From: a virus
Lineage: Duplodnaviria > Caudoviricetes
DNA length: 64,000 bases
Virus record (IMG/VR): IMGVR_UViG_3300032050_000002
Strand: one strand, 5' to 3'
Shown piece by piece: positions 1,992 to 2,387 of the stretch. Both the position numbers and the translations under genes were made by a program. Each line of letters opens with the position of its first letter. The stretch's first letter is position 1. A model generated the notes under the pieces. That model was given only the letters and a program-made list of their open reading frames with translations, was not told where the DNA came from and ran no database searches.

Positions 1992-2294
1992 CTTGTTAAT
2001 TAAGATTTTTTTATTACCTTTGTAAAACATTTGAGGAAAGGTTAATATTTATAGTTTCTCGAATGAAAAAAAAAGTTTGAGAAAAATTTGGTAAATTAAA
2101 AAATTCTTCTTATCTTTGTAAAACAAATCGGGAATGTCCGATTAGTTCTTTGAAAAAAAAGTTTTAGAAAAATTTGGTAAATCCAAAAATAATTCTTACC
2201 TTTGTAAAAGAAAATCGGAGTAAAAAACTGATAGATTCTTTGAAAAAGAAGTTTAAGAAAAGTTTGACAGAACAGAAAATTTTTCTTAACTTTG
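1992..2294 (+). promoter_or_regulatory. Four tandem Bacteroidota primary-sigma promoters (-33 TTTG / -7 TAnnTTTG)
   Basis: -7 boxes at 2015-2022 TACCTTTG, 2111-2118 TATCTTTG, 2197-2204 TACCTTTG, 2287-2294 TAACTTTG; -33 at 1992-1995 (CTTG), 2087-2090, 2173-2176, 2263-2266; spacers 19-20 nt. Confidence 0.9.
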
Positions 2295-2387
2295 TAAAGA
2301 GTTTGAAAGTGGGAATGAGGTCATAAAGATTCCTTACTTAGTAAGGTTATAAAGGTTCCTCACCACAATCAACTCGGTTCTTTGAAA
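2145..2387 (+). promoter_or_regulatory. Three boxA-like antitermination elements (GTTCTTTGAAA), each preceded by a hairpin
   Basis: GTTCTTTGAAA at 2145-2155, GATTCTTTGAAA at 2234-2245, GGTTCTTTGAAA at 2376-2387; resembles the rrn-leader boxB-boxA layout. Confidence 0.6.

Follow-up and report, generated by a model that had tools for sequence, protein, structure and literature searches.

A candidate rRNA-leader-type control region ahead of the GOLLD RNA of a Bacteroidota phage

The stretch at 1971-2394 of the DNA analysed here, which comes from a large Bacteroidota phage of fresh water, is very probably the control region of a phage stable-RNA operon, built from the parts that the host phylum uses in its ribosomal RNA (rrn) leaders. 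By "the window" we mean the whole stretch of DNA that was analysed, 64,000 nucleotides from IMG/VR virus record IMGVR_UViG_3300032050_000002. An earlier note, made from the letters of this DNA, had read the region as an rrn-leader-type cassette serving a non-ribosomal RNA and a tRNA, a core reading that the architecture described below supports.

The array and its RNA cargo

The array lies in an AT-rich intergenic stretch (1897-2394, 17-30% GC), with a small minus-strand lipoprotein-like ORF upstream (1717-1896) and a GC-richer segment without ORFs downstream. Tandem Repeats Finder detects an array of period 90 (2067-2298, 2.6 copies, 80% matches), and a repeat search gives a 61-nt core in four copies, starting at 1971, 2067, 2153 and 2243, spaced by 96, 86 and 90 nt and 64-100% identical. 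When the units are aligned, the same blocks recur in one orientation: an A/T tract with GTTT, then TTTG, a spacer of 19-20 nt, and TAnCTTTGTAAA. The features of the array and of the RNA genes discussed below are these.

1971 to 2066, plus strand: unit 1, with the weaker putative promoter P1 (CTTG at 1992-1995 in the -33-like position, -7 box TACCTTTG at 2015-2022)
2028 to 2065, plus strand: hairpin of unit 1, carrying ATATTTATA in its loop at 2045-2053
2067 to 2155, plus strand: unit 2, with A-tract and GTTT at 2067-2078 and putative promoter P2 at 2087-2118 (TTTG-N20-TATCTTTG, the -7 box starting at 2111)
2126 to 2143, plus strand: 5' hairpin of the unit 2 leader, followed by boxA GTTCTTTGAAA at 2145-2155
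2153 to 2245, plus strand: unit 3, with putative promoter P3 at 2173-2204 (TTTG-N20-TACCTTTG, -7 box at 2197) and a weak hairpin at 2214-2232
2235 to 2245, plus strand: boxA variant ATTCTTTGAAA of unit 3, with A at boxA position 1
2243 to 2394, plus strand: unit 4, with putative promoter P4 at 2263-2294 (TTTG-N20-TAACTTTG, -7 box at 2287) and a long hairpin at 2299-2375
2377 to 2387, plus strand: boxA GTTCTTTGAAA of unit 4, with the extension TATTGAA at 2388-2394 that is shared with host rrn leaders
2395 to 3247, plus strand: GOLLD RNA, its 5' boundary approximate; the variable 5' domain (about 2395-2851) lies outside the Rfam model
2852 to 3247, plus strand: GOLLD 3' domain (Rfam RF02032, 317.7 bits against a gathering score of 150, model positions 1-416)
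3266 to 3340, plus strand: tRNA-Met (CAU), 18 nt past the GOLLD 3' end
3341 to 3787, plus strand: trailing non-coding stretch, ending in an intrinsic terminator
3745 to 3787, plus strand: intrinsic terminator, read directly from the sequence (stem 3745-3755 with 3766-3776, T-run 3777-3787)
5964 to 6350, minus strand: tmRNA
6351 to 6406, minus strand: tmRNA leader, with putative promoter at 6376-6406 (TTTG-N19-TATATTTG) and GTTCTTTAACA at 6355-6365, four nt before the tmRNA 5' end
6427 to 6435, minus strand: ATATTTATA upstream of the tmRNA promoter

The consensus for the primary sigma factor of Bacteroidota (sigma-ABfr) is TTTG near -33 and TAnnTTTG near -7 (PMC7366714). The -7 box TAnnTTTG is present in all four units, and the complete pattern TTTG-N18-21-TAnnTTTG is matched exactly at 2087-2118, 2173-2204 and 2263-2294, unit 1 being a near match (CTTG). 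Across the window the strict promoter pattern has 12 matches against 4.1 expected, a count reached in none of 100 shuffles. From these motif matches we infer that the four tandem sites act as Bacteroidota primary-sigma promoters.

Each of units 2 to 4 continues into a hairpin (that of unit 2 has a predicted stability of -6.8 to -8.4 kcal/mol) and a boxA-type element. The three 11-mers (GTTCTTTGAAA at 2145 and 2377, ATTCTTTGAAA at 2235) match the boxA consensus, the critical C at position 4 included; they agree both with the published proteobacterial consensus GYTCTTTAANA (bioRxiv 10.1101/091223) and with the AUGAUCUUUGAAA of B. subtilis, which binds NusB and likewise stands after a 5' hairpin (bioRxiv 10.1101/091223; PMC13753749). 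All are in sense orientation, 26-30 nt past the -7 box in units 2 and 3 and 82 nt past it in unit 4, the start sites being predicted. In unit 1 an intact boxA is absent, and the 3' arm of its hairpin, AGTTTCTCGAATGA, resembles a degenerate one. The earlier note had described four ~90-bp units with TTTG-N19/20-TAnnTTTG, the last three followed by a hairpin and a boxA-type element, and both points hold, with units of 86-96 bp and a weaker match in the first. If one mismatch is allowed, the 11-mer is not significantly enriched over the window (8 found against 6.0 expected), and the only other exact copy in the window, at 56121, is antisense inside a 227-aa ORF and is taken as chance. The significance of boxA at this locus lies in its position and in the comparison with other loci, rather than in its count.

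A second kind of promoter may overlie the array. The earlier note had placed a putative late promoter at 2045, and the motif itself is real: there are 18 copies of ATATTTATA in the window where 5.7 would be expected, and 13 of them (for example those at 213, 13692, 19759, 26217 and 31912) lie within 30 nt upstream of an ORF start on the same strand, a position in which chance would put 4%. Of the other five, two precede the two RNA genes, at 2045 and at 6427-6435 on the minus strand, and in related phages a TATTTAT word comes before the GOLLD unit on the same strand. The pattern would fit a phage-specific, perhaps late, promoter, and the site at 2045 could feed the boxA-equipped leader.

The downstream non-ribosomal RNA and tRNA of the earlier note proved to be GOLLD (317.7 bits) and tRNA-Met. 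GOLLD is among the largest non-coding RNAs of bacteria and phages, and we know of no function for it; its structure, solved by cryo-EM, is a 14-mer nanocage (PMC12286853). The 5' domain, which varies between clades, aligns in the window with that of two uncultured megaphages of 630-640 kb. The tRNA-Met is most likely co-transcribed with GOLLD and released by tRNA processing, and the terminator at 3745-3787 is likely the 3' end of the RNA operon. The transcription unit is then about 1.8 kb, all of it untranslated RNA. Folded as one piece, 3341-3767 was no better than shuffles, and Rfam searched at permissive thresholds over 1900-3900 gave no families beyond those already found. The ORF listed at 3768-4415 starts within the terminator stem, and an ATG near 3824, after a ATATTTAT word, is its likelier start.

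Parts of 1950-3350 occur in contigs from RNA-labelled freshwater runs (20 runs, 13 studies), which cover at most 0.67 of the words sampled, DNA carry-over being possible; the leader array is represented in three of these runs by 0.58, 0.47 and 0.47 of its sampled words. These word shares hint that the locus, part of the array included, is transcribed in nature.

Host rrn leaders and related phage loci

In order to compare the array with host leaders, 120 Bacteroidota loci were fetched by exact match to the 5' end of 16S, a choice blind to the phage element, and the roughly 100 with at least 300 nt of upstream sequence were analysed. Over the 600 nt that precede 16S, the strict promoter pattern has a density of 1.95 per kb, as against 0.013 per kb elsewhere in the same loci. 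Among full-length leaders (n=93) there are at least two promoter matches in 33, at least three in 9 and four in 4, with a spacing of mostly 89-150 bp. Given these 4 host leaders of 93, four tandem promoters are the top of the natural rrn range and not a peculiarity of the phage.

The boxA of the phage is equally at home in these leaders. In sense orientation, the interval from -400 to -30 contains GTTCTTTGAAA 21 times and the other 1.43 Mb contain it 4 times, so that its density is 170-fold higher in the leaders. The most widespread 8-mers of the leaders are TTCTTTGA and GTTCTTTG (45-46 of 102 leaders), and the extended context in hosts reads G(T/A)TCTTTGA-A-A, about three variable nucleotides, then T-(G/T)-(G/A)-A-A. 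The phage string GTTCTTTGAAATATTGAA fits the host motif GTTCTTTGAA-nnn-T(T/G)(G/A)AA, and three host loci (L007, L045 and L103) carry nearly the same string. Since the extended motif occurs in several Bacteroidota orders, this boxA dialect does not point to a host genus. About 20 host leaders (among L003-L122) carry AGTTCATT (for example GTTCATTGACA in Epilithonimonas, L089) in place of GTTCTTTGA, which may be a second boxA dialect within Bacteroidota.

The likeness extends to the arrangement. In 51% of leaders a stable hairpin has its end no more than 8 nt ahead of the host boxA, compared with 13% of shuffles, and in hosts with several promoters (L029, L110, L018) each promoter often has its own hairpin and boxA-like word, with the next A-tract following directly, a modular arrangement that resembles the phage array. 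When phage unit 2 served as nhmmer query, 737 kb of host DNA gave 22 matches at E<=10, all 22 of them in rrn leaders and on the sense strand, 184-520 nt before 16S, where leaders make up about 4% of the search space. Alignment to Bacteroidota rrn leaders had been proposed in the earlier note as a check on its reading, and it came out in favour, with the same tandem promoters, A-tract, hairpin, boxA and extension on both sides. The same note held that the phage copies the host rrn leader. That stands for the functional elements; it does not stand as recent capture of host DNA, a possibility we considered for the units and do not find supported, the nhmmer matches being individually weak (best E 0.01 to any sampled leader). 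What phage and host leaders have in common would appear to be a set of functional elements, not recent ancestry.

To place the array among its relatives, we used two IMG/VR pattern scans with conserved words of the GOLLD 3' domain, which yielded 31 loci from freshwater and similar samples; with the window and L001 counted in, 27 loci have enough upstream sequence. Immediately ahead of GOLLD, 26 of the 27 have a boxA word, at 702-802 nt upstream of a fixed GOLLD anchor (-758 for the copy in the window). The words are GTTCTTTGAAA, GTTCTTTAAA or GTTCTTTGACA, and L135 has only GTTCTTTG. The sole exception among the 27 is L002, in which GOLLD lies behind tandem promoters without boxA, so boxA is not indispensable. 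An exact 28-mer of unit 2 is absent from IMG/VR, so that no near-identical relatives turned up there to reveal variation in the copy number of the array, and a scan of viral contigs for two boxA 80-110 bp apart gave mostly chance matches in coding DNA and no other four-unit array.

Most relatives have one or two units, reading A-tract, TTG, spacer, TAACTTTGTAAAAC, hairpin, boxA and then the GOLLD 5' end, and unit 2 of the window is the counterpart of their single promoter-hairpin-boxA unit. Given this, the four-unit array would have arisen by local tandem amplification of the single unit found in related phages, and not recently, since the units are 64-89% identical. In the window the additional promoter units occupy the place of a conserved ORF of about 45-50 aa (..YGY.N..G..FWT.N.EFA....Y.T..VY.EK), absent there, that relatives encode between the TATTTAT word and the GOLLD promoter (L126 at about 930-1080, and equivalent places in L128, L133, L137, L139 and L143); a boxA-like word sometimes stands immediately before its start codon.

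Across the relatives the hairpin stem takes four compensating forms (TTCGGA/TCCGAA, ATCGGG/TCCGAT, CTTGGT/ACCAAG and GTTACTC/GAGTAAC), with a loop of AAYG or AAAG, and the boxA beside this covarying stem is invariant. A covarying stem beside an invariant boxA is what one expects of a structural hairpin adjoining a single-stranded element that would be read by its sequence. L151 has a much shorter 5' domain of GOLLD, and boxA is still at the domain edge. The megaphage locus L001 has a promoter-hairpin-boxA unit ahead of a tRNA gene and, between a tRNA and GOLLD, a separate hairpin-boxA without a promoter of its own, like the second boxA of rrn spacers. In both megaphage loci (L001 1806-2440, LR745206.1; L002 2090-2400, LR756502.1) GOLLD lies inside a tRNA cluster, and several of the megaphage tRNA-like genes look interrupted by inserts (L001 2150-2250, L002 2268-2385).

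boxA is also found at a second stable RNA of these phages. The tmRNA has its own Bacteroidota promoter (-7 box TATATTTG) and a boxA in all four phages examined, that is, the window and three related phages (window 6351-6435, minus strand; L126 2879-3000, minus strand; L132 about 6400-6508; L143 about 7760-7879). The boxA, GTTCTTTAACA or GTTCTTTGA, stands 10-18 nt past the promoter and 4-21 nt before the tmRNA 5' end, and the GTTCTTTAACA of the window is an exact fit to GYTCTTTAANA. In the window a near-identical promoter at 36051-36082 on the minus strand runs directly into a protein-coding region, without boxA. On these sequences, boxA appears to accompany stable-RNA genes and not promoters in general. 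In L143 a group I intron match (8253-8474, RF00028, 96 bits) overlaps the 3' end of the tmRNA match (7880-8277).

Similar elements were noticed elsewhere. Some phage contigs of IMG/VR that are unrelated have GTTCTTTGAAA immediately ahead of one tRNA gene after another in an array (L159, about 6100-6280, minus strand; L167, 9015-9190, plus strand), and in another it punctuates an apparently non-coding stretch (L162, 1458-1569, minus strand), so that boxA may be widespread in phage stable-RNA arrays. Tandem repeats of about 100 bp in L168 (8130-8420) and L169 (14170-14445, minus strand) consist of runs of GCCTTGC-type heptamers, a hairpin and GTTCTTTGAAA. In the published ROOL alignment (PMC12286853, supplementary file 5), six rows contain UUCUUUGA, and the two passages inspected have it in the 5' flanking columns of ROOL rows; to judge from these passages some ROOL RNAs may lie behind a boxA.

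Four GOLLD phages of other phyla were also compared. The 1.6 kb or so ahead of GOLLD contains no boxA-like motif in phiCbK, Vibrio phage PG07, Mycobacterium phage Bongo or Roseobacter phage DSS3P8, whose hosts (Caulobacter, Vibrio, Mycobacterium and Ruegeria) are Proteobacteria and Actinobacteria. We therefore reject the idea that boxA is a universal part of GOLLD, as it is absent from these four phages of other phyla and from L002. Its absence from GOLLD loci in other phyla makes boxA a host-matched expression signal and not part of the GOLLD fold.

Proposed mechanism and alternatives

The mechanism we propose starts from the motifs, their order and orientation, the match to host leaders and the conservation in the phage clade, all of which were observed. 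The four tandem primary-sigma promoters, with their A/T-rich tracts, would raise the loading of host RNA polymerase, which would start 5-8 nt past each -7 box. Transcripts from P2, P3 and P4 would begin a few nucleotides before the small hairpin, and the nascent RNA would fold this hairpin and expose the boxA GTTCTTTGAAA. By analogy with rrn (PMC13753749, PMC10250234), boxA RNA would then bind host NusB-S10 and, together with NusA and NusG, convert the polymerase to a termination-resistant form. The polymerase so modified by Nus factors could transcribe some 1.4 kb of structured RNA that is not translated and escape Rho-dependent termination, and it might aid the folding of that RNA; processing of the tRNA would free the GOLLD 3' end. 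More speculatively, the ATATTTATA at 2045, upstream of all three boxA, may add later transcription by a phage-modified polymerase.

This mechanism could be carried further, to a Nus-modified polymerase that holds the leader as a co-transcriptional chaperone for the folding of GOLLD and its 14-mer cage, and to boxA copies that titrate NusB-S10 away from host rrn; we consider this extension rather unlikely. If the chaperone were real, GOLLD folding and cage assembly would depend on the transcription machinery of host ribosome biogenesis. If three boxA on an abundant transcript, together with the tmRNA and tRNA leaders, did titrate NusB-S10, the cassette would be a decoy that throttles host ribosome synthesis.

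Three other explanations grant less to the leader. The first accepts the promoters as real and takes the hairpin and GTTCTTTGAAA to be a 5' stabiliser, a signal for processing or the structural element with which GOLLD begins, not a Nus site. We judge this improbable, despite two points that speak for it: in 26 of 27 loci the motif borders on the 5' domain of GOLLD at a constant distance, and RNAs are commonly stabilised by a hairpin at the 5' end. Against it, the 11-mer is invariant and has no covarying partner strand, next to a hairpin that does covary, and the same motif precedes genes for tmRNA and tRNA and is present in the 16S leaders of hosts. In addition, the motif is missing from the GOLLD loci of other phyla, and it keeps its place when the length of the 5' domain changes, as in L151.

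The second explanation is that hairpin and T-rich run form an intrinsic terminator or attenuator, which would insulate the promoters or gate entry into GOLLD. A consensus scan does flag 2126-2143 with AGTTCTTTGA as terminator-like, yet the stem is weak (about -7 kcal/mol), the spacer is 1-4 nt and the T-run is broken by C, with G and A after it, so that hairpin and T-run lack the GC-rich stem directly followed by an uninterrupted U-tract of an intrinsic terminator. Host rrn leaders, through which the polymerase has to pass, show the same arrangement, and a stop about 25 nt past each of four promoters would defeat the purpose of the array. Such a terminator is accordingly very doubtful. No better placed is the idea that the 90-bp repeats are sites at the DNA level, either origin iterons or an operator array for a phage regulator, and not promoters: they are AT-rich (17-25% GC) intergenic tandem repeats between divergent genes, but the invariant blocks of the aligned units all fall on promoter or boxA elements, in a single orientation, among relatives there are one or two units and no array, the units match rrn promoter regions specifically, and the dyad symmetry typical of operators is absent.

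Significance and comparison with known systems

On the preferred reading, of a control region made from rrn-leader parts, GOLLD gains an expression context, one of high output by host polymerase that is probably Nus-modified. The leader gives defined 5' boundaries for GOLLD constructs, and it provides a testable link between GOLLD biogenesis and the host machinery for rRNA transcription. It also extends the use of boxA by phages from mRNA, as in lambda and T7, to stable RNAs, namely GOLLD, tmRNA and some tRNAs. To our knowledge antitermination in Bacteroidota has barely been studied, and the comparison also yields an initial overview of how rrn leaders are built in this phylum: up to four promoter units, a hairpin and GTTCTTTGAA-nnn-TTGAA. 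As a tool, the cassette could be used in Bacteroidota to express untranslated RNAs strongly from a compact module.

Within the GOLLD family (RF02032), the window holds a full-length member beside a tRNA-Met, like the solved env-38 (PMC12286853). It differs in its boxA leader, which goes unmentioned in the published descriptions consulted; the published alignment covers the 3' domain only. Our literature search found no publication that treats both GOLLD and boxA.

The closest parallel is the rrn leader itself, which in E. coli has the promoters P1 and P2, boxB-boxA-boxC, and an antitermination complex of Nus factors, SuhB and S4 (PMC10250234; PMC13753749). The phage locus has the same strong tandem promoters with A/T-rich tracts, the same order of hairpin, boxA and short conserved extension, and the same long, untranslated, structured cargo followed by a tRNA, with a motif identical to that of Bacteroidota leaders. 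It differs in being viral, in carrying GOLLD in place of rRNA, and in repeating hairpin and boxA after each of three promoters only 86-96 bp apart; a leader-trailer helix flanking the cargo was not found by eye.

Among phages, the early region of T7 has the host-polymerase promoters A0-A3 in tandem, with a boxA antitermination element downstream (PMC3709561, citing Savalia 2010). Here too several strong tandem host promoters have a host-type boxA behind them, whereas in T7 the cargo is early mRNA, the host is proteobacterial and there is one boxA, as opposed to a stable non-coding RNA, a Bacteroidota host and three boxA. Lambda uses host NusB-S10 via the boxA of nutL and nutR for processive antitermination (PMC2800207), with boxA preceding boxB, the phage protein N on boxB, and mRNA as cargo; the order here is that of rrn, and no N-like factor is known. 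As for boxA leaders outside rRNA, passages of bioRxiv 10.1101/091223 and PMC13753749 place them in the suhB 5' UTR and at CRISPR arrays. There a non-ribosomal transcript is protected or regulated, as is proposed here, and the CRISPR transcript is also long and untranslated, whereas those loci are chromosomal, proteobacterial and have single promoters.

Tandem promoters with boxA (rrn, T7), boxA in phages (lambda) and boxA before a long untranslated RNA (CRISPR arrays) are thus each known. New are the cargo and the setting, in which a clade of Bacteroidota phages places GOLLD, and separately tmRNA, behind an rrn-type leader.
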